NCBI GenBank assembly: GCA_963771175.1
Contig: CAVYSY010000003.1
Span: forward strand, 64,001-128,000
DNA from: an uncultured delta proteobacterium
GTDB lineage: Bacteria; Myxococcota; Myxococcia; Myxococcales; Myxococcaceae
DNA length: 64,000 nucleotides
Direction of reading: 5' to 3'
Part shown: piece after piece, positions 25,887-41,831 of the stretch
Numbering within the stretch: the first letter of the stretch is position 1
Layout of the letters: every line of letters begins with the position of its first letter
Translations under genes and position numbers: made by a program
The notes under the pieces: model-generated
Database searches by the model: none
Told to the model about the DNA's origin: nothing
What the model saw: only the letters and a program-made list of their open reading frames with translations

Positions 25887-27227
25887 TCAGCAGCGGTGCC
25901 GCTCGGCCTCGCGGTAGAGCTGAGTGAGGGAGTAGTCCAGGAGCGACTGGCGGGAGCGCATGTAATGTTGGGCCCGAGCAAAGGGTAGCCAGACGCGAGT
26001 GCCCACGAGCACCTGCGCTTCCTCGAGCTTCTGGCGCGGAATCCACTGTCCACCCAGGTTGCGCACCAGCACCTCGCCCAGGTACGCGCCCACCGCGGGC
26101 ACCGCGTGCGCGTCGATGGCTTCTCGCAGGCGGCTCTTCGGGAACTCCTCGCGCCAGAAGTAGAAGTCGGCGTCCGTGAGCGACTCGGGGGTCTCCTTGA
26201 AGACCGAGGGCACCTCGGTGTGCAGCAGCGCCACGAGGCGCTCGGAGAGGTAGCCGTAATGCTCGAGCGCGCGCGCCGGGTCCTCCACGTCGGAAGGCAG
26301 CGCGGCGTCGGCGGGGAGCCACTCCTCGGGCTCGGGCGGCCGCCACGCGTTGAACTCGGCGATCTTCCGCTGGCGCTCGCTGATGGCGACCCGGTCCACC
26401 ACGCGCGAGAGGAGCGGCGCCAGCTCCGGGGGAAAGCGGGGCTCCACGGGGGCGAGCGCGGCACTGCGCTCGCGCAGGGTGCGCAGCACGGTGTCGAAGT
26501 CGAGGTCCGGCCGGAGGTGGGCGTGCGCGCGGGCCTGGGCCACTCGCGCCTCGTCGCTGGCGAAGTCCGCCGCCGTGGGCCACGTCACCAGGAGGACGGA
26601 GCCGGTGGGTAATTCCTCCACCCGCCAGGCCGGCGTGGACAGCATGCGCTCGCGGCCGACGAGCTCCACCAGCTTCGGACCGAAGACGTTGAGCCAGGAC
26701 AGCTCGTAGATTTTGTCGAAACCGTTTCGAATCGCGGTCTGCATATCGCGGCCGAACCAGGGAGCGCCCGACAACTGGTCCTCAGCCAGGCTGTTGGCCT
26801 CAGCGTGGGTGACCGGATAGTGGGAGGCCCAGGCGCGCACCATGTCCACGAATTCGCGGCAGCGCTCCGCACTCGAAAAGCAGGAGAGCGGCTGGACAGA
26901 GAGCCCCATGCGCAATTTGGGAGGGAGCGGCGGGAAATAGAGACTGAGCGACATGTCCAACGCGGGCCACTTCGTGCGGTAGAGCCCGAGGCCCGTGCTG
27001 TTCTCATCTCGCCGCTCCGCCAGCCCCTTCCAGAAGGAAGGGCGGGAGTATTTGCGTTGGCGCTTGCCCTGGATGACATCCGGCATCCACTCGCCCGAGA
27101 ACTCCTCGAGTGCCTGCAGGAAGGGCTCCAGCTCGCGTTCCAGCGGGGCTCGTTGGTCGAAGGTCCCTTTGAAGGAGAAGGTGAGACTGTCCTCCGGCTT
27201 CAAGTCATGAAATTCCAGCACCTTCAT
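25887..27227 (-). CDS. Hypothetical cytoplasmic protein, candidate immunity protein
   Basis: ATG overlaps the stop of the upstream toxin-like gene. No signal peptide. WLNVFGP...VEELPTGSVLLV resembles the tails of known immunity families. Confidence 0.55.
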   Translation of the reverse strand: MKVLEFHDLKPEDSLTFSFKGTFDQRAPLERELEPFLQALEEFSGEWMPDVIQGKRQRKYSRPSFWKGLAERRDENSTGLGLYRTKWPALDMSLSLYFPPLPPKLRMGLSVQPLSCFSSAERCREFVDMVRAWASHYPVTHAEANSLAEDQLSGAPWFGRDMQTAIRNGFDKIYELSWLNVFGPKLVELVGRERMLSTPAWRVEELPTGSVLLVTWPTAADFASDEARVAQARAHAHLRPDLDFDTVLRTLRERSAALAPVEPRFPPELAPLLSRVVDRVAISERQRKIAEFNAWRPPEPEEWLPADAALPSDVEDPARALEHYGYLSERLVALLHTEVPSVFKETPESLTDADFYFWREEFPKSRLREAIDAHAVPAVGAYLGEVLVRNLGGQWIPRQKLEEAQVLVGTRVWLPFARAQHYMRSRQSLLDYSLTQLYREAERHRC

Positions 27228-29461
27228 TGGAACAGCACCTCCACCCCCTGGACCTTGTTCTGAGCTTCTTCCAATGCCGCAGCCAACGTGGCTGGCTTTC
27301 TGGGCTTGAGTTCACCGCCTTCGTAGATGAGGCGGACCCTGTGAACCAGCACCTGCTTGTCGAGAAGTTCCAGAGTGGGCCGACGGATGTTCAGCGTCTC
27401 GCCGTAATACCGCAGAGCCTCGCGCGCGTCCGCCTTCACCTGTGCCTTCAAGGGACCTTCCTTCAGCAACGAGAGGTCTCGGCTCTTGAAGCTGAACGTC
27501 TCCACGCGAGGGAGCGGGCCGGAGAGCGAGCCCTCCTCGATGATGAGCACATCCGCGAAGCGCAGGCCGGTGCCAGGTTTCTTCACGCCCACATACGTCT
27601 CGATGCGCGGGTTGTCGAAGTCTCCCAAGAAGCGGCGCTGCGCCTTGGGAAGGGCCGCATCCGCGCGCAGCAGCTCCACCATGGCGCGCTCGAAGGCCAG
27701 CCCTCGGGCGAATTGCCCGCGCATTGGTTCGTAGCCCGCCCATGATAGGGGCGGCTTCACCACCTTGCCTTGCTTCAGCTCGGCGAGTCGGCTCTCCCAA
27801 TAGGCAACGTACTCACGCCAGAGCGGGTGACCCTGAGCACCCAGCGGAGGGACGTCGAGGGAAGGGCGTTGTTTCTCCAGCACCGCCACGTTCCCGGACA
27901 GGCGCGGGCCCCCGGAGTCGAGCTCCACCTGCAACAGCTTGGCCTCCACCACCTCCGGGGTCAGGCCCGCCGGCTCGTCCACCAGGGTGGACACGGCACC
28001 GGGGTGCTTCCCGGCACCACGCAGCTTCGCGGTGGGCCCCGCCTGCTGGGGCCTTGCTCGTGACAGCCACACCTGCGCCTTCGCCACATCGCCCCGGGCT
28101 TCGTAGAGGGCCACGGCGGCATCCGGTCCCCCCACGGACACGAGGCGGCCCGCCTCCCGGTTGGCCTGGATGTACCGGGCCAGCTCGTCCAGGGCCTCCC
28201 CACCCAGCCGCGCTTCCAAGTGCGTCACCACCTCCGTCAGCTTCGAGCGCAGCTCCGGTAGTTGGAGTCGCCGCACGCCGCCCGTCCCGGCGCCCGGGGC
28301 CACCCACGTGCCGCCCGCGTACAGGGCCACCAGCAGCGCCGCGGGCGTCAGCTCGCGGGCCGCCTGCTCGTACTGGCCTCGGGACAGGGAGTGCACCCCC
28401 CGGCCCGTCCCGACCGCCAGATGGTAGAAGCCCAGCGGTACGCCGAACGTCAGCGTGTCGAAACTCCCCAGCGCCACGTTGCCCGGCGAGAAGGACCGCA
28501 AGCGCTCCACCCGCTCCACCTCGTCGAGGGCCTGCTGGTAGGGAGGCGGCAGGTGCCCTCGCTGCGCGGAGAACTTCGTGGCCCGGGCATTCCTGGCCTC
28601 ATGGGGAGTGAAGGCTTCGCCCAGGGCCGTCACCACTCCGCGGGCCCCGTCCTCGAGCGGGCGCTCGGGGCGGTCCTCATACGCCTCGAGGTTCAGCCCC
28701 CGCCGCGCCAACGCCTCGCGGGCGGCGCCCATCTTCCCCAACGTCTCCCCCAGCCGCCTGTCCCCGGCCAGCAACCGCAGCACCGCTCCCAGCTCGTCGC
28801 CAAAGGCCGAGTGGATGAGGAAGAGGGCGAACACCTCGCCCTCGGCGGGGCCACGCTCGCGGGTGACCTGGACGAGGAAGGAGGCCCGCTTGCGATTGAG
28901 GACTTCGGCGGCGTCTTCACGCACGGGCCCCAGTGCGCCGAGCCGGACGGCGGACCAGTCGTCCAACGCTTCCACCAGCCGGGGCATGTCCACCCCTTGC
29001 TGCACCTCGACGAACTCCGAGGGTGAGCACGCCAGCACTGGGGCGAGCAGCTCCTCATCGCTGGAGGACAGGTCGGGCCAGCCTGGGGGCACGGCCACGC
29101 CTCCGCAGGAGAGAGGAGCCACCGGTGAGCCCTCTCCCCTGCCCTCCCAGGGCGCCTCCGCCAGTTCCTCGTTCTCGACGACGACGAGGAGCGGAGCTGT
29201 CTCGAGCGGCGTCCCGCCCAAGCGAGCGGTGTCCGCATCCTGCCCGGGGAAGCCGCCCGCCCCTCCCGCCGTCTCCGCCCAAGCGGCGTCCGGCTGTCGA
29301 GAGCCGGAGCGGAACGAGTCGGGCCGGGAGTGGAGGCCAAAGCCGCTCGTCAGACTCCCGCGTGGGGAGCCTGTCGCGCAGCCTCCGAGGAGCATCAGCG
29401 CGGCCAGGGCCAGCGGAAACGAGCCGAGCCGCCACCCGGTCCCACGGACAGGGATTTTCAC
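27224..29461 (-). CDS. Lipoprotein with C-terminal PD-(D/E)xK-like nuclease domain; candidate polymorphic toxin
   Basis: LMLLGGCATG lipobox; C-terminal AFERAM...RFADVLIIE...ETFSFKSR; followed by a coupled cytoplasmic ORF. Confidence 0.6.
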   Translation of the reverse strand: MKIPVRGTGWRLGSFPLALAALMLLGGCATGSPRGSLTSGFGLHSRPDSFRSGSRQPDAAWAETAGGAGGFPGQDADTARLGGTPLETAPLLVVVENEELAEAPWEGRGEGSPVAPLSCGGVAVPPGWPDLSSSDEELLAPVLACSPSEFVEVQQGVDMPRLVEALDDWSAVRLGALGPVREDAAEVLNRKRASFLVQVTRERGPAEGEVFALFLIHSAFGDELGAVLRLLAGDRRLGETLGKMGAAREALARRGLNLEAYEDRPERPLEDGARGVVTALGEAFTPHEARNARATKFSAQRGHLPPPYQQALDEVERVERLRSFSPGNVALGSFDTLTFGVPLGFYHLAVGTGRGVHSLSRGQYEQAARELTPAALLVALYAGGTWVAPGAGTGGVRRLQLPELRSKLTEVVTHLEARLGGEALDELARYIQANREAGRLVSVGGPDAAVALYEARGDVAKAQVWLSRARPQQAGPTAKLRGAGKHPGAVSTLVDEPAGLTPEVVEAKLLQVELDSGGPRLSGNVAVLEKQRPSLDVPPLGAQGHPLWREYVAYWESRLAELKQGKVVKPPLSWAGYEPMRGQFARGLAFERAMVELLRADAALPKAQRRFLGDFDNPRIETYVGVKKPGTGLRFADVLIIEEGSLSGPLPRVETFSFKSRDLSLLKEGPLKAQVKADAREALRYYGETLNIRRPTLELLDKQVLVHRVRLIYEGGELKPRKPATLAAALEEAQNKVQGVEVLFQ

Positions 29462-29590
29462 GCCGGGCCCGCGCGCCGCAGCAGCAGGCACGCCTCGTCG
29501 CGCAGTTGGGCGAGCGCGTGCCGCACCGTGGCCCAGACGAGGTTGGTCAGGCGCCGGGGCTCGAAGCCGGGAGCGCGCGGCGCCGAGCGC

Positions 29591-30265
29591 CTAGAGCCAC
29601 GCGAAGGCATCGCGCATCGCCTCCCGGCCCCCGCGCTCCACCACCTGGCCATGACACGGCACCACCCGCTCGAAGTCCCACTGGAGGACGCGGTCCCTCC
29701 AGGCGCGCAGCGCGGCCCGGTCCTTCACCATGGACTTCACCAGCTTCGTGGCCCCGAGCCGTCCATACACCCCGCTCCACTTCAGGTACGTGCGCGTCAG
29801 CCACGAGGGCGAGTCGTGGATGTTGAAGGCCAGGTCCGTGAGCAGCAGCGTGCGGCTGGGGCGGTGCAGGAAGACGAACTCCTCCAGCTTGGGAATGCCG
29901 TGCGCCAGGAGCTGCTCGAGGGTGGGCGACTGGCCCACGTCCATCACGTCCGACAGCTCCACGTCGATGCGCAGGTCCGGCCGCTTCTCGCGCAGCCCCG
30001 CGGGCGCGAGCACCTTCGCCGACGGGTACGCGGCGGCCCAGTCCCCGAGCGACAGGTGGTGCATGGTGTTGGGCGCCACCAGGAAGCGCACCGGCCCCAC
30101 CGCGTCCACCGCGCTCCTCACGGCCGCGTCCAGCTTCACCGGCGAGTGCAGCCACAGGCCCCCCTCCGGCAGGCGCACCACCGTCATCCTCCCGCCCAGG
30201 TCCATGCCGGCGAGGCGGAAGGGGACATCCAGGACGAAGAGGTCATCCGTCAGGGGACGCAACAT
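29591..30265 (-). CDS. DUF4336-like (metallo-beta-lactamase-like fold) protein
   Basis: RMTVVRL, LWLHSP, VAPNTMHH, EFVFLHRPSRTLLLTD, PCHG motifs. Confidence 0.78.
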   Translation of the reverse strand: MLRPLTDDLFVLDVPFRLAGMDLGGRMTVVRLPEGGLWLHSPVKLDAAVRSAVDAVGPVRFLVAPNTMHHLSLGDWAAAYPSAKVLAPAGLREKRPDLRIDVELSDVMDVGQSPTLEQLLAHGIPKLEEFVFLHRPSRTLLLTDLAFNIHDSPSWLTRTYLKWSGVYGRLGATKLVKSMVKDRAALRAWRDRVLQWDFERVVPCHGQVVERGGREAMRDAFAWL

Positions 30266-30446
30266 GGCGGGGTTCCTCCGTTTTCAACCCACACACAAAA
30301 AACCAACCCTTGGTCAGAAATCTTGCCAGCACTCTTCCTCGGAGGGTGGTTCTCCTTGCTCCCAGATAGGCTTGGATTCCATAGTTGACAGGGTTGCTAC
30401 CGCAACCGCCGCGCAGCACCGCCCCGAGTGGCTCAGGAGAATCGCC

Positions 30447-30659
30447 ATGAAGAAGGATACGAAGCAGGGCAAGAAGCCGTTCTTCGCGCGCTTGCTGGAG
30501 ACGCAGGAGCTGGAGCACGTGGTGGGCGGTAGGCCGATGAGCGCCGACGCCACCAACAAGTACCCCTCGGACTCGGATGAGGTCGCCATGCCGGTGGTGG
30601 GCCCGAACGGCGCCGACACCACCCACAAGTTCCCCTCGGATAGCGACGAGGCTCTGTAG
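30447..30659 (+). CDS. Microviridin-type (graspetide) RiPP precursor with two core repeats
   Basis: MKKDTKQGKKPFFARLLETQELEHVVGGRPMSADATNKYPSDSDEVAMPVVGPNGADTTHKFPSDSDEAL: PFFARxL leader motif and two TxK(Y/F)PSD cores; AGGAGA RBS; directly upstream of two ATP-grasp genes. Confidence 0.93.
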   Translation: MKKDTKQGKKPFFARLLETQELEHVVGGRPMSADATNKYPSDSDEVAMPVVGPNGADTTHKFPSDSDEAL

Positions 30660-30679
30660 TACCCCGGGCCCCCGGTTCC

Positions 30680-31676
30680 ATGCCCTCCGCCCGCGACACC
30701 GTCCTGCTCCTCACCCACAGCGGCGACCACTACACGGTCGACCGGGTGGCGGAGGAGCTGTCGCGGCGGGGGGCCCGTCCGCTGCGCGTCAACACGGATG
30801 AGTTCCCGTCGACGCTGGAGCTGACGTCGGCGCTGGGCTCCGAGGGCAGTGAGGTGGTGCTGCGCACGGCGGCCGGAGCGCTGCACGCGGAGGAGGTCCA
30901 GTCCGTGTGGCTGCGCCGGTTGGTGCCGCCCCGCCTGGATGAGGAGCTGGAGCCCTCCTACCGCGATGGCTGCCTGCGCGAGTCGCAGGCGGCGCTCGAA
31001 GGCTTTCTCGATGGGCTGACGGAGGCGGGCTGCCGCTTCGTCAACCCGCTCGAGGCGGATCGCGACGGCGAACAACAAGCTGCGCCAGCTCCGGTTGGCC
31101 CGCGCCATGGGTCTGGAGGTGCCGCGCACCCTCGTCACCAATGACGAGGCGCGGGTGCGGTCCTTCTTCGAGCAGGTGCGGGGCCGCATGGTGGCCAAGA
31201 TGCAAACCCCGCTGACTCAGTCCATGCAGGGGGGGAACCCCTTCGTCTACACGACGGCGATCGGCCCCGAGCACCTCGAGGAGCTCGACGGGCTGCGCTA
31301 CAGCCCCATGGTGTTCCAGGAGCGCCTCGACAAGGCGCGCGAGCTGCGGGTGGCCGTGGTGGCCGGGCGCTGCCTGGTGGGGGCCATCGACGCCTCGCGC
31401 TCGGTGGCGGGACAGGTGGACTGGCGGCGGTCCCGGCCGGACGAGGTCCGCTGGGAGCCCGGCGAGCTGCCGGCGGACGTGGCCGAGCGCCTGGGACGCC
31501 TGATGGAGTCGCTGGACCTGGTGTACGGCGCCGTGGACTTCATCGTCACACCCGAGGGCCGACACGTCTTCCTGGAGGTGAACCCCGGGGGCGAGTGGGG
31601 AATGCTCGAGCGAGAGCTCGGTCTGCCCATCGCCGCGGCCCTGGCCGAGGCGCTCGTGGCCGGCGGCTCCCTCTGA
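30680..31676 (+). CDS. mvdC: Microviridin ATP-grasp ligase, MvdC/MdnB-like (lactam-forming); frameshift near 31063
   Basis: VLLLTHSGDHYTVDRVAE, NKLRQL, PMVFQE, ELRV, GAVDFIVTP, FLEVNPGGEWGMLER. Confidence 0.88.
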
Positions 31677-31696
31677 CGGCATTCGCGGGAAAGTCC

Positions 31697-32674
31697 ATGG
31701 CCATCCTCCTCGTCACGCACTCCAAGGACAACCAGGCGCCCCTCTCCGTGGCACGCGCCCTCGAGGCTCGCGGCGAGCGGGTGTACCGGTTCGACACGGA
31801 CCTGTTCCCCACCCGGCTCCAGCTCGCGCTCGACGAGGGCGGCGGCGGGCGGCTCTCCGGGCCGGCGGGCGTGCTCGAGCTGTCGGACGTCACCGCCGTC
31901 TGGTACCGCCGCAACTCGACGGGGGCGGGCATCCCCCAGGACCTGGAGCCGCAGCTCCGTCAGCCCTCGGTGGAGGAGAGCCGGCGTCTGGTGTTCGGGA
32001 TGATGGCGGCGCTCGGCGTCTTCCAGCTCGACGCGCTCGAGGTGGTGCGGCGCGCGGAGCACAAGCCGCTGCAGCTCAAGCTGGCGCGCACGCTGGGGCT
32101 GGAGGTGCCGCGCACGCTGATGACCAATGACCCGGAGGCGGTGCGTGCCTTCGCCGCGAGCTGCCCCAGCGGCGTGGTGACGAAGATGATGTCCTCGTTC
32201 GCCGTGTACGACGAGCGGGGCAAGGAGCAGGTGGTCTTCACCACGCCCCTGAGCCCGAAGGAGCTGGAGGACCTGGAGGGACTGGACCTGTGTCCGATGA
32301 CCTTCCAGGAGCGGCTGACCAAGGCGGTGGAGCTGCGGGTGACGGTGGTGGGAGAGCGGGTGATGGCGGCGGCCATCGACTCGCAGGCGCTGCCGGGCGC
32401 GCGTGAGGACTGGCGTCGCGAGGGCGTGGCGCTCGTCGATGCATGGAAACCCTACACACTGCCCGAGCCGGTGCACGCGCGGGTGCTCGGGCTGATGGAT
32501 GCGCTGGGGCTCAACTACGGCGCGTTCGACTTCATCGTCACCCCCGAGGGGCGGCACGTCTTCCTCGAGGTGAACCCGTCGGGCGAGTTCATGTGGTTGA
32601 TGCGCAACCCGGGCCTGCCCATCGACGAGGCGCTCGCGGACGTGCTCACCGGGCGTGCACCGCGGCGGTCGTGA
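31697..32674 (+). CDS. mvdD: Microviridin ATP-grasp ligase, MvdD/MdnC-like (lactone-forming)
   Basis: ILLVTHSKDN, RFDTDLFPT, HKPLQLKLAR, KMMSSFAVYD...VVFT, CPMTFQE, DWRREG, FLEVNPSGEFMWL. Confidence 0.9.
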   Translation: MAILLVTHSKDNQAPLSVARALEARGERVYRFDTDLFPTRLQLALDEGGGGRLSGPAGVLELSDVTAVWYRRNSTGAGIPQDLEPQLRQPSVEESRRLVFGMMAALGVFQLDALEVVRRAEHKPLQLKLARTLGLEVPRTLMTNDPEAVRAFAASCPSGVVTKMMSSFAVYDERGKEQVVFTTPLSPKELEDLEGLDLCPMTFQERLTKAVELRVTVVGERVMAAAIDSQALPGAREDWRREGVALVDAWKPYTLPEPVHARVLGLMDALGLNYGAFDFIVTPEGRHVFLEVNPSGEFMWLMRNPGLPIDEALADVLTGRAPRRS

Positions 32675-32772
32675 GCCCCCCGGTGCCCGAGCGGTTGGAG
32701 GCCCTCACCGGCCTCCGCTTCCTCGCCGCCTTCCATGCGGCGCCCGCTACGGAGCGCGCAGGAGGCTGGTGA
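32671..32772 (+). pseudogene. N-terminal stub of an acyltransferase-3 (OafA-like) gene
   Basis: GTG overlaps the mvdD stop (GTGA). The peptide VSPPVPERLEALTGLRFLAAFH matches the RxxxLxGLRxxA signature, then runs into the 3' end of the convergent gene. Confidence 0.55.
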
Positions 32773-34269: not shown

Positions 34270-34554
34270 CGACGGCTCCTGTTGATCGATTTTGTTCGGT
34301 AATTCGATCGGAAATACGGAGGCACCGTCCCACCCTGGTCGTTCGCACCGCACAATCCGGGCAGTCAGCCGAGCACGCGGGTGAGGGCACACCCACATCC
34401 CGCGAGCAGCAGGCGGGGGTGCAAGGGTTACAAGATGGGAAATTCCGTTCCAGTAGAAAGGCCAGCCGGAGGTAACGCGGGCGGTCACCCGGGACAGAGA
34501 ACTTCCCTCTCGTTCCGAGGACTTGGACAGGGTTGACCCTCCCGTGGGGACAGG

Positions 34555-34570
34555 TGGGCCGTGCTTTGCA
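34555..34570 (+). promoter_or_regulatory. Sigma-54 (-24/-12) promoter candidate for the minor pilin operon
   Basis: TGGGCCGTGCTTTGCA: GG(34556-57)-N10-GC(34568-69) with TTGCA, about 30 nt upstream of the GTG start and its AAGGAG RBS. Confidence 0.55.
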
Positions 34571-34598
34571 CAGGCAGCCGGGCGGAAGGAGTTCCCGC

Positions 34599-35264
34599 GT
34601 GTCCACCCGCTCCCGCTCCGCAGGCTTCACCCTCATCGAACTGCTCGTGGCGGTCGCCCTCCTCGGCATCCTGGCGACGCTCGCCGGCGTGACGGTGTTC
34701 CATGGCACCGCGCGCGTGCGCGTGAGCAATGCCGCCTTCGAGGTGGGCGCGCTGTACTCCGCCGCACAGATGCGGGCCAGCAGCATGGGCGTGCCCCACT
34801 ACGTCGTCTTCCACGATGACGGTACCGACTTCGGCGCCTACCTGCTGGAGCGAGCCGACGCGCTGGGCTTCTACAACTGGGCCAGCGACGACGTGATGAA
34901 CGCGGCCCTGGTGGGAGGAACGCGGCACGAGCACCTCCGACTCTCGCGCGAGAGCGGTCTGGGCTTCGTGAACCTCGCCGCACCGACTCCCAGCCGCAAG
35001 CCCCTGCCCGCGCCCTTCGCCTCCATCCCGCTCACCGCGTCCGGCTCGGGCCGGCTGCTCGGCGGGTGCTCCTTCTGCACCACGGGCACCGGGGGCGCTC
35101 GCGGGGTCCTCCGCTTCTCTCCCAACGGCACCGTGCAGGTGATGACGGGCAGTGCGGAGGCGGGAGGCGTCGTCGCCTTCGCGCCCGACTCGCGCGGCTT
35201 CCAGTCCGGCCCACCCCGTCTGGTCGTCATCGCCACGCCGGCCGGCGCCATCCGGGTCTTCTAG
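34599..35264 (+). CDS. fimU: Type IV minor pilin FimT/FimU-like
   Basis: Prepilin motif AG|FTLIELLVAVALLGILA; first gene of the operon. Confidence 0.8.
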   Translation: MSTRSRSAGFTLIELLVAVALLGILATLAGVTVFHGTARVRVSNAAFEVGALYSAAQMRASSMGVPHYVVFHDDGTDFGAYLLERADALGFYNWASDDVMNAALVGGTRHEHLRLSRESGLGFVNLAAPTPSRKPLPAPFASIPLTASGSGRLLGGCSFCTTGTGGARGVLRFSPNGTVQVMTGSAEAGGVVAFAPDSRGFQSGPPRLVVIATPAGAIRVF

Positions 35265-35278
35265 GAGGACACGTCTCC

Positions 35279-35830
35279 ATGACATCCATTGCTCGCGCTC
35301 CCCATGCCCGAGGCTTCAGCCTCATCGAGGCCCTGGCGGCGCTCGCCGTCTTCTCCATCGGCCTGCTCGGCGTGCTGCACATGAACGTGCTGGCCAGCCA
35401 GCAGAACGGACTGGCCCGGCGTCAGTCCACCGCGAGCAAGATTGGCCGCGACCTGGTGGACGCCTTCGAGCGCCTGCCCTTCCACCACCCACTGCTGTCC
35501 ACCGTGAGCACCCTCGACCCGGTGGAGCCGCGCTTCGCCCGCTTCGATGAGGCCGACGGTCGGGTGAAGCTCTCGGACGCGGTGGCGCTCGTCGGGGAGC
35601 GCCCGCTGCTCGGCGCGGCGCAGGCCAGCGTGAGCGCCGAGGGCACCTACGAGGTGGCCTGGCGGGTGGCGCCCGTGAAGGGCTCGGACGGCAGCACCGA
35701 GGCCCACCGCATCCTGGTGATGGTGCGCTTCCCCACCACCGCCGGGGACCTCAAGCAGGTCAACGTCTGGGCGGTGAAGTTCAACCCCGAGGCCATCGGC
35801 CGGGGCGCCGCGGCCATCCCGGAGATTTGA
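35279..35830 (+). CDS. pilV: Type IV minor pilin PilV
   Basis: RG|FSLIEALAALAVFSIGLLG; position in operon. Confidence 0.82.
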   Translation: MTSIARAPHARGFSLIEALAALAVFSIGLLGVLHMNVLASQQNGLARRQSTASKIGRDLVDAFERLPFHHPLLSTVSTLDPVEPRFARFDEADGRVKLSDAVALVGERPLLGAAQASVSAEGTYEVAWRVAPVKGSDGSTEAHRILVMVRFPTTAGDLKQVNVWAVKFNPEAIGRGAAAIPEI

Positions 35831-35833
35831 GTC

Positions 35834-37057
35834 ATGCGCGCGCCTCCTGGCCCTCGGGGCTTCACCCTGGTCGAGCTGCTCATCGGCACCGCCGTGAGTG
35901 CCCTGGCGCTCACCGGCATCTGCTTCGTCTTCGTGTCGCAGGCCTCGCAGTACCAGGCCCACGCCAGCCGCCGCGCGGTGCAGGCCAGCGTCCGCCAGGC
36001 GCTCGGCGTCATGGAGCGGCACGTGCGCAACGCGGGCTACGGAGTGGACCCGGACCGCGCCATCCTCGCCTACGACTCCTACGATGCGGCCGGGGACGCA
36101 CCCGGTGACGGCTACCCGGACGGCCTCACCGTCCACGCGCGCGACCTGTACTTCCGCCGCCTCGCCACCACCGTGGGCCCGGACTCCCTGCACTTCGACC
36201 ACGAGCTCCAGCGGCCGCTGCGCAAGGGCGAAATCCTCCTCGTCCTCTGCCCCGGCGCCATCCGGTATGCCTACGTGACGGTGGGAGAGACCGCTCCGGC
36301 GAAGGCCACCTCCGTCAAGCTGGACACCTCTCCGGCCCCGGTGGACTCGCCCGCGGGACCTCCCGGCGCGCTCTTCCGCGAGCAGGACAAGCTGGACGAC
36401 GCCTGCTTCCACGACGGCGAGCCGCCGGTGGTGGTGAAGGTGGAGCGCACCAGCTTCTACGTCACCGCCTTCGATGATGACGGGGACCCGGCCACGCCCA
36501 GCGCCACGCCCTACCTCATGCAGCACCGGGGCGTGGACACCAACGACGACGGACACATCGACGCGGCCGACGCCACGCCCGTCGCGGTGGGCATCGAGCA
36601 ACTCCAGGTGGCCTACATCCTCAACACCGTGGGCAACAGCGCGCCGCCACTCGTGGGGGTGGACGGCACCGTGCCCTGGGGCGAGACGTGGAACACCGGG
36701 ACGCCCGAGTCGGCTCGCCCGCGCCTGGACGACGCCTACGCCTCGCTCCGGCGCCTCCAATCGCACCCGGCCAACATCCGGCAGGTGCGCCTCACGCTCG
36801 TCGCGCGCAGCACCCAGCCGGACCGGCAGCGCCCGGGAGATGACGTGCTCACCCCCGGAGCCGCGGGCACCGAGGGCCCCGCGCTTCCCTCCGGCTCCCT
36901 CCCCTGGCGCCAGCTCGAGAACCTGGGCACCACGCCCGCCAAGGCCTTCGACCCGCGTGGCGGCGGCTTCACCCGCGCCGTGCTTCGCGAGGCCATCGCT
37001 CCCAAGAACCTGCTGATGCGCTCCCAGTTCATCCCCATCCACCGGGGAGGAGGCTGA
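35834..37057 (+). CDS. pilW: Type IV minor pilin PilW
   Basis: RG|FTLVELLIG, RNAGYG, GIEQLQVAY, IRQVRLTLVARS. Confidence 0.85.
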   Translation: MRAPPGPRGFTLVELLIGTAVSALALTGICFVFVSQASQYQAHASRRAVQASVRQALGVMERHVRNAGYGVDPDRAILAYDSYDAAGDAPGDGYPDGLTVHARDLYFRRLATTVGPDSLHFDHELQRPLRKGEILLVLCPGAIRYAYVTVGETAPAKATSVKLDTSPAPVDSPAGPPGALFREQDKLDDACFHDGEPPVVVKVERTSFYVTAFDDDGDPATPSATPYLMQHRGVDTNDDGHIDAADATPVAVGIEQLQVAYILNTVGNSAPPLVGVDGTVPWGETWNTGTPESARPRLDDAYASLRRLQSHPANIRQVRLTLVARSTQPDRQRPGDDVLTPGAAGTEGPALPSGSLPWRQLENLGTTPAKAFDPRGGGFTRAVLREAIAPKNLLMRSQFIPIHRGGG

Positions 37058-37060
37058 GCC

Positions 37061-37582
37061 ATGCACTCCCGTCCCACCGGCCCACGAGGCATGGCCCTCG
37101 TGATGTCGCTCATCGTCATCGTCCTCCTCTCCCTGCTGGTGGCGGGCGCCATCACCTTCACCGGCACCGAGCGCAACGCCGCGATGCTCCAGACGCGCGA
37201 GGACTCGCTCTCCGCCTGCACCCAGGCGGCACGCAACCTCTTCCTCGCGCGACTGCGGGTGCTCACGCCGGGCAGCGCCAGCCAGGTGAGGCTCGATGAC
37301 GCGTACGGCGAGGGCCGCATCCGCCTGGGCCACTTCGCGGGCGGCGCCGATGCCGGAGTCCCGCCCACCCCCGGAGGCGGCTCGTCGGCCACCCTCACCG
37401 AGGTGAAGGCCATTCCCGCCAACGCCGTGGGGACCTCGCGCGGCTCGGCGCGGGACATCAGCAACACCCTCGGCGACTCGGCCGAGGGAGCCATCTGGTA
37501 CTCCGTCACGGCGCTCTGCCAGGAGTACCCGGGCGGCCCCGAGCGTGAGGTCGAGTTCGTCGTCCGTGTCGGCCTGCAGTAG
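37061..37582 (+). CDS. pilX: Type IV minor pilin PilX
   Basis: RG|MALVMSLIVIV lacking Glu5, as typical of PilX; directly before pilY1. Confidence 0.78.
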   Translation: MHSRPTGPRGMALVMSLIVIVLLSLLVAGAITFTGTERNAAMLQTREDSLSACTQAARNLFLARLRVLTPGSASQVRLDDAYGEGRIRLGHFAGGADAGVPPTPGGGSSATLTEVKAIPANAVGTSRGSARDISNTLGDSAEGAIWYSVTALCQEYPGGPEREVEFVVRVGLQ

Positions 37583-37598
37583 CCCCGAGGAATCCCTC

Positions 37599-40500
37599 AT
37601 GACTGCCTGGAGCCACCTCCACCGCCTGCTCTCCGCCGCGCTCCTGCTCACCCCCGCGCTGGCCCATACCGAGTCGGAGCCCAGGGCCGCCTGCTGCCAG
37701 CTCACCACCTCGCTGGCCTCCGAGGCCCTGCGCGGTGAGGACCTCACCGGGGACGAGCGCTTCTTCATGAGCGAGGGCACGTCGCCCAACGTCCACTTCC
37801 TCATCGACACCTCGGCCTCCATGCGCGAGCTGCCCCAGGTGAAGGAAGGCGACCATGAGTCCTTCTTCGCCGCGGGCGACGGCTGCACCCAGCCGGCTCT
37901 GCTCGCGGTGGAGGCCGCCAACGGGTGGAACCCGAGCACCGTGTACCCCGTACCGGACGCGGACCACCCCAACCTGTTCCGTGACGACAAGCTCTACGCG
38001 TACATGTTCTGGGAGGACCTCAACGAGCCGGCCCCCAACTGGAACACGAAGGAGGACGCCTGCGCGTTCCAGCACCCGGTGTCCGCGGACCCGACCCGGG
38101 CGCTCTACGACGCGTGCCTCTCCTGCCTCCAGGAAAAGGGCTTCTACAAGCGGCCGGGGGCGGTGGGCTCCAGGCCGGGGATGGATCCCCGCCGCCTCAC
38201 CTACGTCTTCACCGGCCGCTTCCTCAACTTCAACCCGCCCAAGTACGTGACGGCCAAGGCCACCCTCAAGTCCATCCTCCGAGACATGCGGCGGGTGCGC
38301 GTGGGCCTCAGCTACTTCGACGCGGACAACTCGGTGCACGGCGCGCTCATGGCCATGCCGCAGGGCCCCTCGTGCGACGCGCTCCGCGCGAACCCCAACG
38401 CCTTCACCACCGCGCGCGACGGCTACCTCGCGGCCGTGGACTCGCTGCGCTTCAAGGCCGCCACCCCGCTCGCCGAGTCGCTCCTCAACCTCGGGCAGTA
38501 CTTCTCCTCGAGCAACGGCCTCTACACGGACACCTTCGGCTTCGACTCCAGCTACCTCAAGACGGGCTTCCAGAACGTGCTCCTCGGGAGCCCGGAACGG
38601 AGCTGGTGCTGGGGCTGCCAGGCCACCTCCATCGTCATCGTCACCGACGGCGAGCCGAGCGCCGATGACCACGTCCCCGCCGCGAGCATCGAGCTCCTCA
38701 ACGGCGGCCCGGTGACATGCCCCACCGCGGAGCCGTGCCCGGAGGACGCGCAGCACAAGCTGGATGACGTGGCGAAGCTGCTCGCCACCCAGGACCTGCA
38801 GCGCAGCAGCCCGGAGGTGCTGGGCGACCTCGACACCCACGGCCGGCAGAGCCTCACCATCCACGCCATCGGCTTCGGGGTGAACGCCCACATCCTCAAG
38901 AACGCCGCCCGCGTGGGAGGCGGCCTCTACTACCAGGCCAACGACGGCGTGGGGCTGAAGAAGGCCCTGGAGAACGTCATCGCCAACGTGGACCGGCGCG
39001 CCACCTCCTTCTCGTCGGCGTCCGTGTCCGGCACGCAGCTCTCCGGTGCGAACGGCACGCTGGTGCCCCGCCTGCGTCCGGGCCGGGACAGAGACGAGCC
39101 GTGGCGCGGCTACCTCTACCGCTACGAGCTCGCCTCGGAGCTGCTGCTCGGCTGCAAGCCGGACAAGGCCGCGGCCTCCGGTGGGGACACGAAGGACCTC
39201 AACGCGGACAAGGACTGCGAGGATGTCCACCTCATCGACGCGGACGGCGACGCCGTCGTGGAGAACGAGCTGGGGGACTTCGTGAAGCTGAAGGACCGGC
39301 TGCAGCCGGCGCGCCCCTTCTGGGAGGCGGGCCAGCAGCTCAAGGCCACGTCGACACCGACCCAGCGGTGGAAGACGCGCTCCATCTACACCCTCGTGGA
39401 CAACGGCGGCCCCAACGGGGCCGGACCGGATGGACGCCTCGACTCCCACGACACCCCGGTGGCCTTCACCGAGGCGAACGCGACCCTGCTGCGCGAGTTC
39501 CTCGGCATCGGCGAGGGCGGGTGCACGGTGGCCGGCGAGAAGCTGGGACCGGACGACTGCGCCCGGGCCGTCATCCGCTACTACCGGGGCGCGGACGTGC
39601 TGAACACGGACCCGACCCGGCGCGACTTCGACCGGCCCTTCCTGCTGCACGACATCTTCCACTCGGCGCCGCAGAGCGTGGAGCCGCCCATGCCCCGGGC
39701 CTTCTGCGGCTTCTCGCGGCAGTGCCTGCAGACACTCTTCGCCGGGCAGACGGAGCAGAAGGGCTACGCGGAGTCGGGCACGGGCCGCACGCACGACGCC
39801 TATGACGAGTACGTCTCGCGCCACAAGGACCGGGACCGGGTGGTGCTGGTGGGCTCCAACGGCGGCATGCTCCACGCCTTCCACAACGGGCGCGGCGCCG
39901 GGGAGGACCCCGTCACGGGACTCGTGCGGCACGACGAGGGCACGGGCGAGGAGCTGTGGGCCTTCGTCCCGCCGGACCTGCTGCCCAAGCTGCTGCCCAA
40001 GCTGGGCCGGCACGGCTGGTTCGTGGACGGCACGCCCATGGTGCGCGAGGTGTGGCTGGACGGCGTGGGCCGGCCGGGAGACGCGGTGGCCGATGGGAAG
40101 AAGCAGGCCAGCGAGTTCCGCACCGTGGCCGTCGTGGGCTCGGGCACGGGCGGCGTGCACCGCTTCGCGCTCGACGTGACGGCGCTGCTGCGCAGCCCGG
40201 GTGCGGCACAGTCGGGGCGGGCGCCCAGCGAGAAGGGCGACTTCCTGTGGATGTGGCCGCAGCCGTGCGACCCGCTCGCGCTGCAGCTCGGCGAGAGCGA
40301 TGGCCACTTCGCGTCCCGCCCGCCGCCCATCGGCCCGGTGGCCCTGGACGACCCGGACGGCCCGTGGAAGGTGGAGGGCAAGAAGGCCCGCGAGCAGTGG
40401 GTCGTCTTCCTCAACGGCGGCTATGACCGCTCGCTCAGCCGGGGCCGGGGCCTGGCCATGGTGGACCTGCGCTCGGGCGAGACGCTGTGGAGCTTCTTCG

Positions 40501-41831
40501 CGGGCGACGGCAGCGCGCGCTCCGAGTCCCTGCGCCACCCCTTCGCCGCCAGCGTGGCGATGATGGACATCGGCGGCCAGCTCGGCTCGAAGCCGGACGG
40601 AGACCTGCTCTTCGACACCGCCACCGTGGCGGACTACGGCGGGCAGGTGTGGACGGTGCGCTTCTGGGAGCCGGGGAGGCGCTCGCCCGGGGGCCGTGTC
40701 GAAAACTGGTTCGCCGCCCGCGCCTTCCAGGTGAAGGCCTCGGACCCACAGGCCGTGCGGCCGTCCTTCAGCTACATGACCTCCAACACCGTGCAGCCGG
40801 ACACGGGCTACCTGCGGACCTTCATCGGCACGGGCGACCGCTACAACCTCGCGGACGGCGGAGGGACGACGTGCCGGCTCTCCAATCCGCTCGGGTGCGC
40901 GCAGCTCGGCTGCCAGGCGAGCCAGACCGTCACCCTGGAGCGCGGAGGCACCACCGCCTGGAGCGCCAGCACCTCCTATGCCGACTACCTGAACACCAGC
41001 GGCGCGCCCACCTCGGGCACGGCCGGGGCCACGTGTGGCTCGACGAAGGTGTCGCTCGCCTGGAACTACGGCGCGGACAACGGCTGCACCGCGAGCACCT
41101 CGGGCCGGCTGGAGTACACCTGTGACGGCACCGGCGCCTCCTGGGGCTGCCGGGTGACCCAGAACGACTGGAAGCAGCTCGCCACGACGAAGCCGCTGCC
41201 GGCCACCAGTCCCCACCGCTTCTATGGTTTCTGGAGCTACGGGGTGAAGAAGGCCCGCACCTTCAACACCCCCACCGAGGCCACCGCGTACGAGGCGGGC
41301 CTGCTCACGGACGACTCGCTGGTGGACGTGTCCCAGTTCGATGCCACCGGGAAGGTGACGGGGGACCTGGAGGCCGGGTCTCTGGAGGCCGGCTGGTTCG
41401 TGCGCTACGGCCTGCCCCGCGAGCAGACGGGCAGCGGCACCACCATCGTCAACGGGTGCGTGCTGTGGAACAGCTTCGAGGCGGGGGCCTCCAGTGGCAT
41501 CTGCGCCACCTCGGGGGACCACAAGGCGCGCATCTACCAGGCGGGCTTCGTGGGCGGGGCGGCCAACTGCGCCGAGGGCTTCTACACGGCGGCCAGTGGC
41601 GGCGGGAGCGGCACCTGGCAGCGCTACGGGGAGCGGAGCGTCCTGTCGGCCCCGGCGGACCCGACCCCCCAGCGGAGCCCGCAGACGGTGGACATCATCC
41701 TCAACGAGCCGGGCACGGGCCCCCGTCGGGTGGGGGTGGCCCTGGAGAACGAGGCCCTCCAGTCACTCTACCAGTTGGAATTGGACCGTTCCGGGCACGA
41801 CTGCCGGCACGAGGCCCAGCGGTGCGAGTAG
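37599..41831 (+). CDS. pilY1: PilY1/PilC type IV pilus tip adhesin with vWA-like domain and beta-propeller
   Basis: FLIDTSASM (DxSxS), TPLAESL, IVTDGEP (vWA); LHDIFHSAP, GSNGGMLHAF, ELWAFVP, FVDGTP, IGTGDR (PilC propeller). Confidence 0.9.
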   Translation: MTAWSHLHRLLSAALLLTPALAHTESEPRAACCQLTTSLASEALRGEDLTGDERFFMSEGTSPNVHFLIDTSASMRELPQVKEGDHESFFAAGDGCTQPALLAVEAANGWNPSTVYPVPDADHPNLFRDDKLYAYMFWEDLNEPAPNWNTKEDACAFQHPVSADPTRALYDACLSCLQEKGFYKRPGAVGSRPGMDPRRLTYVFTGRFLNFNPPKYVTAKATLKSILRDMRRVRVGLSYFDADNSVHGALMAMPQGPSCDALRANPNAFTTARDGYLAAVDSLRFKAATPLAESLLNLGQYFSSSNGLYTDTFGFDSSYLKTGFQNVLLGSPERSWCWGCQATSIVIVTDGEPSADDHVPAASIELLNGGPVTCPTAEPCPEDAQHKLDDVAKLLATQDLQRSSPEVLGDLDTHGRQSLTIHAIGFGVNAHILKNAARVGGGLYYQANDGVGLKKALENVIANVDRRATSFSSASVSGTQLSGANGTLVPRLRPGRDRDEPWRGYLYRYELASELLLGCKPDKAAASGGDTKDLNADKDCEDVHLIDADGDAVVENELGDFVKLKDRLQPARPFWEAGQQLKATSTPTQRWKTRSIYTLVDNGGPNGAGPDGRLDSHDTPVAFTEANATLLREFLGIGEGGCTVAGEKLGPDDCARAVIRYYRGADVLNTDPTRRDFDRPFLLHDIFHSAPQSVEPPMPRAFCGFSRQCLQTLFAGQTEQKGYAESGTGRTHDAYDEYVSRHKDRDRVVLVGSNGGMLHAFHNGRGAGEDPVTGLVRHDEGTGEELWAFVPPDLLPKLLPKLGRHGWFVDGTPMVREVWLDGVGRPGDAVADGKKQASEFRTVAVVGSGTGGVHRFALDVTALLRSPGAAQSGRAPSEKGDFLWMWPQPCDPLALQLGESDGHFASRPPPIGPVALDDPDGPWKVEGKKAREQWVVFLNGGYDRSLSRGRGLAMVDLRSGETLWSFFAGDGSARSESLRHPFAASVAMMDIGGQLGSKPDGDLLFDTATVADYGGQVWTVRFWEPGRRSPGGRVENWFAARAFQVKASDPQAVRPSFSYMTSNTVQPDTGYLRTFIGTGDRYNLADGGGTTCRLSNPLGCAQLGCQASQTVTLERGGTTAWSASTSYADYLNTSGAPTSGTAGATCGSTKVSLAWNYGADNGCTASTSGRLEYTCDGTGASWGCRVTQNDWKQLATTKPLPATSPHRFYGFWSYGVKKARTFNTPTEATAYEAGLLTDDSLVDVSQFDATGKVTGDLEAGSLEAGWFVRYGLPREQTGSGTTIVNGCVLWNSFEAGASSGICATSGDHKARIYQAGFVGGAANCAEGFYTAASGGGSGTWQRYGERSVLSAPADPTPQRSPQTVDIILNEPGTGPRRVGVALENEALQSLYQLELDRSGHDCRHEAQRCE

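Follow-up and report, generated by a model that had tools for sequence, protein, structure and literature searches.

A multi-core microviridin cluster

The window analysed in this work, a stretch of 64,000 nucleotides from contig CAVYSY010000003.1 of the uncultured delta proteobacterium assembly GCA_963771175.1 (hereafter G000), contains between positions 30447 and 32674 a small precursor gene followed by the genes of two ATP-grasp ligases. The best explanation overall, in which we place high confidence, is that this cluster is a microviridin (group 1 graspetide) operon with a multi-core precursor, belonging to Archangium or a very close relative. It combines a leader helix of the PFFARFL type, cores of the form TxKxPSDx(D/E)(D/E), which is the microviridin core consensus (PMC12848669), an adjacent MvdD/MdnC-type ester ligase gene, and an adjacent MvdC/MdnB-type amide ligase gene that is frameshifted in this assembly and intact in close strains. 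The features of the cluster are as follows (ORF, open reading frame; aa, amino acids; PCAT, peptidase-containing ATP-binding cassette transporter):

30447..30659 (+): microviridin precursor gene, MvdE/MdnA type, 70 aa, two cores; ORF from the ATG at 30447 with NF033738 and PF12559 matches
30477..30497 (+): PFFARLL ligase-recognition motif, residues 11-17, aligned to the MdnA leader (PDB 5IG9 chain P)
30495..30530 (+): double-glycine (C39/PCAT-type) leader end, GG at residues 27-28, with L(-12), E(-8), L(-7) and V(-4)
30552..30581 (+): core 1, TNKYPSDSDE, residues 36-45, Asn at the S1-facing position
30621..30650 (+): core 2, THKFPSDSDE, residues 59-68, His at the S1-facing position
30680..31676 (+): gene for an ATP-grasp ligase of the mvdC/mdnB type (lactam-forming), interrupted by a single surplus base near 31063-31065; TIGR04185 matches in both halves
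31697..32674 (+): intact gene for an ATP-grasp ligase of the mvdD/mdnC type (lactone-forming), 325 aa; TIGR04184 437.1 bits, best PDB match 5IG9
30435..30439 (+): ribosome-binding site AGGAG, read from the sequence, 7 nt ahead of the ATG at 30447
30356..30385 (+): promoter-like element of the form TTG, 20-21 nt, CATAGT, located 91 nt upstream of the precursor ATG
29591-30265 (-): DUF4336 gene, whose antisense shadow makes up most of a 309-aa ORF call

In profile searches the precursor scored 49.5 bits against NF033738 (cut-off 26) and 35.3 bits against PF12559 (cut-off 21), and its leader could be aligned to the MdnA leader of 5IG9 chain P with an E-value of 0.024. An earlier note on this DNA had described a 70-aa ORF at the end of the 309-aa call, with a PFFARLL leader motif and two TxK(Y/F)PSDSDE cores, and had proposed a search with profile models of microviridin precursors; the gene start behind a ribosome-binding site and the positions of the motif and both cores hold, and both profiles matched above their cut-offs. 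The 309-aa ORF (29730-30659) was ruled out as a real protein, being mostly antisense to the DUF4336 gene, with the ribosome-binding site preceding 30447. The precursor starts of relatives are likewise preceded by a GGAG-type site, and a separate Joint Genome Institute contig (P0002) encodes the same 70 residues without a difference. A search for the core pattern across all six reading frames of the 9.83-Mb genome gave four matches, each inside one of two precursor genes; therefore, the cores are not a chance occurrence.

The ligase genes

The MvdD-type protein scored 437.1 bits against the TIGR04184 MvdD profile, 253.8 bits against MvdC, and 34.6 bits against RimK, and its closest solved structure is MdnC (5IG9, 336.5 bits). 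The first half of mvdC matches positions 1-119 of the TIGR04185 MvdC profile with 121 bits and the second half positions 122-317 with 285.7 bits, while the best structures for the intact MvdC orthologue of locus L001 (94-96% identical) are AMdnB (7M4S, 322.7 bits), followed by MdnB (5IG8). The MvdD pre-ATP-grasp domain PF21068 was found above its cut-off in both ligase genes. According to residue numbers obtained by counting along the alignment to 5IG9, the MvdD-type protein retains the residues aligned to MdnC K125, K166, Q207, E208, D281, E294, and N296. All of these are regarded as catalytic residues. For Q207, the catalytic role is described in PMC12848669.

It could be proposed that both ATP-grasp proteins belong to the RimK-like amino-acid ligases and have nothing to do with the small ORF. 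Such an identity has practically no chance of being correct: one database member of the MvdD cluster does carry the name glutathione synthase/RimK-type enzyme, and weak RimK profile matches of 34.6-38.9 bits exist, but the MvdD and MvdC profile scores are about ten times higher, PF21068 is above cut-off in both genes, and the ligase genes lie directly 3' of the precursor in 21 distinct clusters. With 34.6 and 38.9 bits against a TIGR00768 cut-off of 143.4, and with MdnC and MdnB as the best structures, assignment to RimK or another ligase outside the RiPPs (peptides made by the ribosome and modified after translation) was refuted. The earlier note had read the genes as MvdC-like and MvdD-like while allowing for a grouping with RimK; profiles (TIGR04185/TIGR04184) and structures (5IG9, 5IG8/7M4S) bear out the former, the ligases grouping with MdnC and MdnB.

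Several observations weigh against the microviridin assignment. The MvdD-type protein stays below the TIGR04184 cut-off of 475 bits, and the intact MvdC orthologues, with 424.5 and 400.5 bits, stay below the TIGR04185 cut-off of 425; scores under the TIGRFAM cut-offs were also obtained for all four orthologues tested. Because of these scores, the ligases are named MvdD-type and MvdC-type and not members of the TIGR04184 and TIGR04185 equivalogs. The leader-binding Glu191 of MdnC is replaced by Lys here and is Glu in just 2 of 21 orthologues, and loss of the Glu191/Asp192 pair is described as a mark of the partner-dependent enzyme MyxD2 (PMC12848669). Position 192 (MdnC numbering) is acidic in 13 of the 21 orthologues, and acidic residues nearby may compensate for the replacement. 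Finally, all four sequencing runs used are contigs, none of them on record as RNA, and the sole RNA run contained 7% of the words.

The mvdC frameshift

The frameshift in mvdC is very probably an assembly error, since the extra base near 31063-31065 is absent from the contigs of three of four public runs (X1, X2, and X3), single-base insertions are frequent in the assembly, and mvdC is in a single frame at 19 of 20 related loci. X1 provides a single contig spanning 30200-32737 with 25 substitutions in 2.5 kb, while the contigs of X6 do not span the frameshift site. The indel rate was estimated by comparison with the nearest genome, G011, in which 56 of 95 coding-like ORFs could be aligned (at least 88% identity over 80% of the length); 30 of the 56 are frameshifted in G000, a count that takes in overlapping antisense ORFs. 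After removal of overlaps, 76 frameshifting indels were found in 66,050 bases, 68 of them extra bases, and with contig C22 left out there were 26 in 50,284 bases (about 0.5 per kb), a rate at which a 1-kb gene would be hit about 40% of the time. Single-base insertions are dense throughout G000 and worst at C22:42500-61100, with 3.2 per kb on C22 against about 0.5 per kb on the other contigs. Pseudogenes or frameshifts called in this assembly deserve distrust, and reading the break as an assembly error corrects a false mvdC pseudogene call.

The opposite possibility is that the frameshift is real in this strain, in which case two esters per core only would be formed, yielding a bicyclic marinostatin-like product after four water losses. 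The break stands in the assembly as given, no second MvdC-type gene that could stand in for the broken one was found in G000, where the other ATP-grasp genes (contigs C26, C27, and C36) show 30-41% identity, and loss of MdnB is common and yields marinostatin-type peptides (PMC7823629). Two further points weigh against an assembly error: the mvdC gene of L014 carries a different frameshift, and X1, X2, and X3 were taken as close strains, none of them demonstrably representing reads of the source genome itself. We nevertheless regard a real frameshift as very improbable, given the three close strains lacking the extra base, 10 further +1 indels within 19 kb of the window's own contig, the absence of a stop within either matched mvdC half, and the Lys retained at position 3 of both cores.

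Predicted ring pattern and specificity

By analogy with characterised homologues, the PFFARLL leader would activate the MvdD-type ligase, which would act on each core on its own and form first the large and then the small ester, namely T36-D42 and then S41-D44 in core 1, and T59-D65 and then S64-D67 in core 2. The MvdC-type ligase would next close the amides K38-E45 and K61-E68, giving six water losses overall. Such an order, with the large ester preceding the small one in each core independently, is described for AMdnC acting on the three-core AMdnA (PMC5934393). For the untagged window precursor, the calculated monoisotopic mass is 7614.71, falling to 7542.67 with four waters lost and to 7506.65 with six; the corresponding values for the peptide left by a cut at GG would be 4418.99, 4346.95, and 4310.93. 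The ring pattern proposed in the earlier note (T1-D7, S6-D9, and K3-E10) fits well, being in the same register as the links of myxomiditide A solved by nuclear magnetic resonance (NMR), Thr9-Asp15, Ser14-Asp17, and Lys11-acid18, with the Ser-Asp small ring included (PMC12848669).

In microviridin J, the residue after Thr enters the S1 pocket of the protease, and the S1-position substitutions discussed are Phe, Leu, Arg, Tyr, and Met (PMC7823629). Across the 76 cores of the myxobacterial precursors described below, the S1-facing residue is L in 27, K in 13, Q in 10, R and M in 7 each, E in 5, N and H in 3 each, and T in 1. Asn or His at this position is not known from a characterised microviridin, although a full list of members was not consulted. 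Most likely, judging from the family, the product inhibits serine proteases, with Asn and His entering the S1 pockets. The S1-facing position is variable (2.69 bits), core position 8 is so too (2.85 bits), and single-codon ratios of nonsynonymous to synonymous polymorphism (pN/pS) range from 0.49 to 5.92; positive selection on the S1-facing residue is therefore not claimed. Inhibitors of unusual proteases could result from Asn and His, and across the genus Gln and Glu, at the specificity position.

Distribution in Archangium and relatives

A search with the MvdD protein returned 20 loci, of which 18 belong to Archangium, Vitiosangium, Hyalangium, Cystobacter, and a Myxococcaceae strain (78-96% identity) and two to Planctomycetota; from this we infer that the window would lie in or beside the genus Archangium, or in a very close relative. 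The gene order is kept in 17 of the 18 myxobacterial loci, L011 being without a precursor. Among 40 relatives, the precursor is present in 17/17 genomes of the same genus, 1/7 of other genera of the family, and 0/16 further genomes of the order, and the ligase pair in 16/17 (it is lacking in G007, 73% complete) and 1/7, respectively.

Altogether 40 distinct precursors were gathered, and the 36 myxobacterial ones (21 clustered with ligases and 15 orphan) were analysed after four from Planctomycetota had been set aside. They hold 76 cores, 71 with all ring-forming residues, and 34 of the 36 have two or three cores. Two cores are thus the norm of the genus and not a rarity. The pN/pS values are 0.18-0.30 on leader and ring positions, the pair L048-L051 being disregarded owing to misalignment by a GGG leader end.

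Two further arrangements were seen. The Planctomycetota loci L019 and L020 each have two single-core precursors with Gly-rich linkers and no ELxxxxGG motif; the leader motif is therefore not universal among clusters of related ligases. Genome G018 encodes a 457-aa microviridin precursor (L057:3167-4537, -) that comprises an N-terminal domain of roughly 120 residues, PFFEHLL as a variant of the leader motif, and 16 cores in tandem, and an MvdC/MvdD-like pair comes after it; this core number is far above the five described for class II.

Orphan precursors

A second precursor gene of G000 lies on another contig (G000:C21:35130-35336; L021:7131-7337, +). It encodes 69 aa with two cores (NF033738, 49.7 bits), carries Arg and Gln at the S1-facing positions, has no ligase nearby, and has a syntenic copy in G011 (L042). 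The 15 orphans are distributed over 13 of the 18 genus genomes (G000 included), and none of their flanks, 1.4-8 kb long, has an ATP-grasp match at E 0.01. G008, a genome in one contig, and G010 have a ligase pair in open frame without an adjacent precursor, and their sole NF033738 match is an orphan; in G008 this only detected precursor is located about 3.3 Mb from the ligases by the shorter arc. These orphan-only genomes suggest processing in trans. No report of microviridin precursors processed in trans was found in the searchable literature, most subscription journals being outside the search.

We consider it probable, though by no means assured, that the ligase pair of the window also matures the C21 precursor. 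An unlikely alternative that still deserves serious weight is that the orphans, including that on C21, are unprocessed leftovers of duplicated clusters that lost their ligases, so that only the clustered precursor is made. Some orphans do occupy sites where full clusters are found elsewhere (L049 and L061 are at the syntenic position of the window, and cluster L016 has a neighbour in common with L048 and L051), and among the matches examined no orphan turned up for 5 of the 18 genus genomes. Moreover, the orphans were found by similarity to P0001, a search to which decayed copies are invisible and which inflates the apparent conservation, and kin genomes are not independent of one another. Against leftovers stand, however, the 29 of 30 orphan cores that keep all ring residues, pN/pS values like those of clustered copies (0.24 on the leaders and 0.18-0.30 on the ring positions), an upstream motif common to 10/15 orphans and 6/21 clusters, a pattern derived from these same sequences, and the ligase pairs of G008 and G010, which have an orphan as their only detected precursor. 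A tree of the precursors shows neither a single nor a multiple origin of the orphans, since 19 of its 33 inner branches are weak and the orphan versus clustered status needs about three changes.

The TTG/CATAGT element of the window occurs 80-96 nt upstream of 11/21 clustered precursors and 0/15 orphans, with five copies genome-wide; this is a post-hoc count, the pattern having been derived from the very sequences counted. A generic sigma-70 scan revealed no site.

Beside the precursor-less ligase pairs of G010 (L011:926-2830) and G008 (L082:7451-8820) there are tRNA arrays with six tRNAs detected in each. A small ORF rich in Met and Thr and a gene of HNH type accompany them, and an HNH family flanks six clusters.

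Leader processing and export

All 36 distinct myxobacterial precursors have L at -12, E at -8, L at -7, V or A at -4, and a terminal GG in the leader. C39 peptidase transporters read a hydrophobic -4/-7/-12 pattern before GG (PMC10885120). In the window precursor, L(-12) is the last L of PFFARLL, and so the recognition signals for the ligase and for C39 overlap. Three full-length PCATs are encoded in G000, on contigs other than that of the window: C25, C33, and C38 (L083, L085, and L084), within two lanthipeptide clusters and one radical-SAM peptide cluster. PCAT homologues were detected in 17/17 genus genomes, the C25 transporter being about 90% or more identical in 17/17. Judging from the motif, a PCAT encoded elsewhere in the genome would cut after G27-G28 and export a 42-residue peptide with two tricyclic cages, and host proteases may afterwards split the Pro/Gly-rich linker between the cages.

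GG occurs between cores in 5 of the 36 precursors only, and neither GG nor another evident cut site separates the two cores here. Because of this, one two-cage peptide of 42 residues is taken as the default predicted product. Of the two outcomes offered in the earlier note, two distinct tricyclic peptides or one hexacyclic one, the single two-cage peptide is thus retained, while two separate peptides appear less likely.

Three observations weigh against export by a borrowed C39 transporter. G018 has the ligase pair yet no PCAT match at 1e-100; the PCATs sit within their own lanthipeptide and radical-SAM clusters and are not linked to the microviridin cluster; and the neighbour families examined include no conserved transporter, peptidase, or acetyltransferase. 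The neighbours vary, with ThiF at nine loci, DUF1684 at eight, peptidase S58 at four, and single M28 and S15 peptidases. One could hypothesise that a bifunctional cytoplasmic peptidase of the M1 type (NosP/AplP) removes the leader in place of a C39 transporter, which would produce ragged N-termini. NosP, encoded in trans, cuts cyanobacterial leaders near an LEEQ/LAEQ motif (PMC13039773), and the leaders here carry LETQ, LEEQ, LEAQ, or LEDQ right after PFFARL, which, together with the lack of a cluster-linked PCAT, speaks for this route. It is nevertheless quite unlikely, as it would not need the GG and the hydrophobic -4/-7/-12 pattern found in 36/36 precursors.

Neighbourhood of the cluster and other loci

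Immediately downstream of the ligase genes lies the remnant of another gene:

32674..32737 (+): start of an acyltransferase-3 gene, matching residues 12-32 of the L001 acyltransferase

The X1 contig carries about 1 kb more DNA at 32737, and the window, through either a true deletion or a loss in assembly, keeps only the ends of this gene. The acyltransferase-3 gene is not conserved beside other clusters, and the remnant is probably outside the microviridin pathway.

On the (+) strand, at 34533-41831, the window contains a run of type IV pilus minor-pilin and PilY1-like genes, labelled from ORF translations. The same genes flank the orphans in L049 and L061, so the window locus is syntenic with both. 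On the other side of the cluster, at 25887-29491 (-), a 755-aa ORF call with a C-terminal part of lower GC content is followed by a 446-aa gene, neither of which has a Pfam match. This layout resembles that of a myxobacterial polymorphic toxin-immunity pair.

Three other ATP-grasp genes of the genome are located at G000:C26:103-1412, C27:2845-4140, and C36:2364-3533 (L022-L024). Those on C26 and C27, both near contig ends, follow small Cys/Asp/Thr-rich ORFs with double-glycine leaders, and these two loci probably represent other graspetide groups.

Broader reading and significance

Taken together, the chances are about even that the genus possesses a distributed system, in which one MvdC/MvdD pair would mature both the linked precursor and orphan precursors dispersed at megabase distances under a second promoter type, and the products would borrow a C39 transporter from other RiPP clusters via the overlapping leader signals. 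If so, Archangium would hold, across the genus, a library of protease inhibitors with two or three heads, in which Leu, Lys, Gln, Arg, Met, Glu, Asn, His, and Thr as S1-facing residues may reach proteases beyond trypsin, chymotrypsin, and elastase. Should the orphans be matured in trans, cluster-based genome mining would undercount microviridins, and a predatory bacterium would hold a modular arsenal of protease inhibitors. Possible ecological roles include shielding from the proteases of prey or competitors and control of the bacterium's own proteases.

The cluster itself is ordinary, and the interest lies in the presumed processing of orphans in trans and in the unusual residues that face S1. 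It adds a predicted congener to a well-studied family and offers an easy entry to a conserved myxobacterial pathway, intact versions being carried by cultured Archangium strains.

Comparison with known systems

The earlier note had put the locus forward as an uncharacterised system, a framing that did not survive comparison with the literature: multi-core precursors are a described class (PMC13039773, PMC7823629, PMC5934393), the clusters have been tabulated in Archangium, and NCBI names the orthologous precursors microviridin/marinostatin inhibitors. That note also omitted the double-glycine leader motif, the C21 precursor, and the artefact evidence for the frameshift. PMC12766979 (Table 5) lists a conserved, uncharacterised microviridin biosynthetic gene cluster for Archangium, Cystobacter, and Sorangium, and PMC5323630 counts two microviridin clusters in Archangium sp. 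Cb G35. Very probably, these belong to the same cluster family; they are antiSMASH microviridin calls in the same genus, for which the cited passages give the type or count only, with no precursor anatomy, orphans, or product. No isolated microviridin of Archangium or Cystobacter was found in the literature that could be searched, which left out most subscription journals. Table S1 of PMC12848669 gave no match to Archangium, Cystobacter, Vitiosangium, Hyalangium, or PSDSDE; it lists accessions with the phylum only and so neither includes nor excludes these clusters.

Class II microviridins are defined by multi-core precursors with double-glycine motifs, a C39 transporter in the cluster being usual but not obligatory (PMC13039773, PMC7823629). 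Of the features of class II in the Ahmed scheme, the tandem cores and the double glycine (GG ends the leader in 36/36) are found here and the C39 transporter in the cluster is not; the cluster is assigned to class II by precursor layout only. In the scheme of PMC12848669 the cluster falls into class 1, as it has neither the (KxxE)n and MyxF-type ligase of class 3 nor, for core 1 or core 2, the TxxxxD N-terminal to the core of the chitinoviridin-type class 2.

A PFFARFL-type leader and two esters are shared with the bicyclic marinostatin-type peptides (PMC7823629). The latter lack the amide and MdnB, whereas the window cluster keeps Lys3 and mvdC, and the likeness applies only if the frameshift is real. 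The one characterised microviridin of Myxococcota that was found, myxomiditide, belongs to another subclass (PMC12848669). The myx cluster, from a metagenome-assembled genome of the same phylum, resembles the window cluster in the tricyclic core consensus and the Ser-Asp small lactone, demonstrated there by NMR. However, its ligases number four, MyxF among them, and it has two precursors as well as KxxE lactams at the N-terminus, while the window cluster contains two ligases and lacks KxxE ahead of both cores.

The Microcystis MdnA/MdnB/MdnC (5IG8, 5IG9) and Planktothrix MvdE/MvdC/MvdD systems share with the window cluster the PFFARxL leader, the core register, and the catalytic residues. The window cluster differs from them in that their precursors are single-core and mostly lack GG (PMC13039773), and in that GNAT and ABC genes accompany them. 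Compared with 5IG9, Glu191 of MdnC is Lys here, and Ser-Asp-Glu stands in the core in place of the Trp-Glu-Glu of the 5IG9 peptide. The class II AMdnA/AMdnC/AMdnB system of Anabaena sp. PCC 7120 (PMC5934393; 7M4S) likewise combines one leader, several cores, and an ester and an amide ligase. In contrast to that system, the window precursor has two cores rather than three and no GG between them, its cluster contains no C39 transporter or acetyltransferase, and additional precursor genes without ligases are present elsewhere in the genome.

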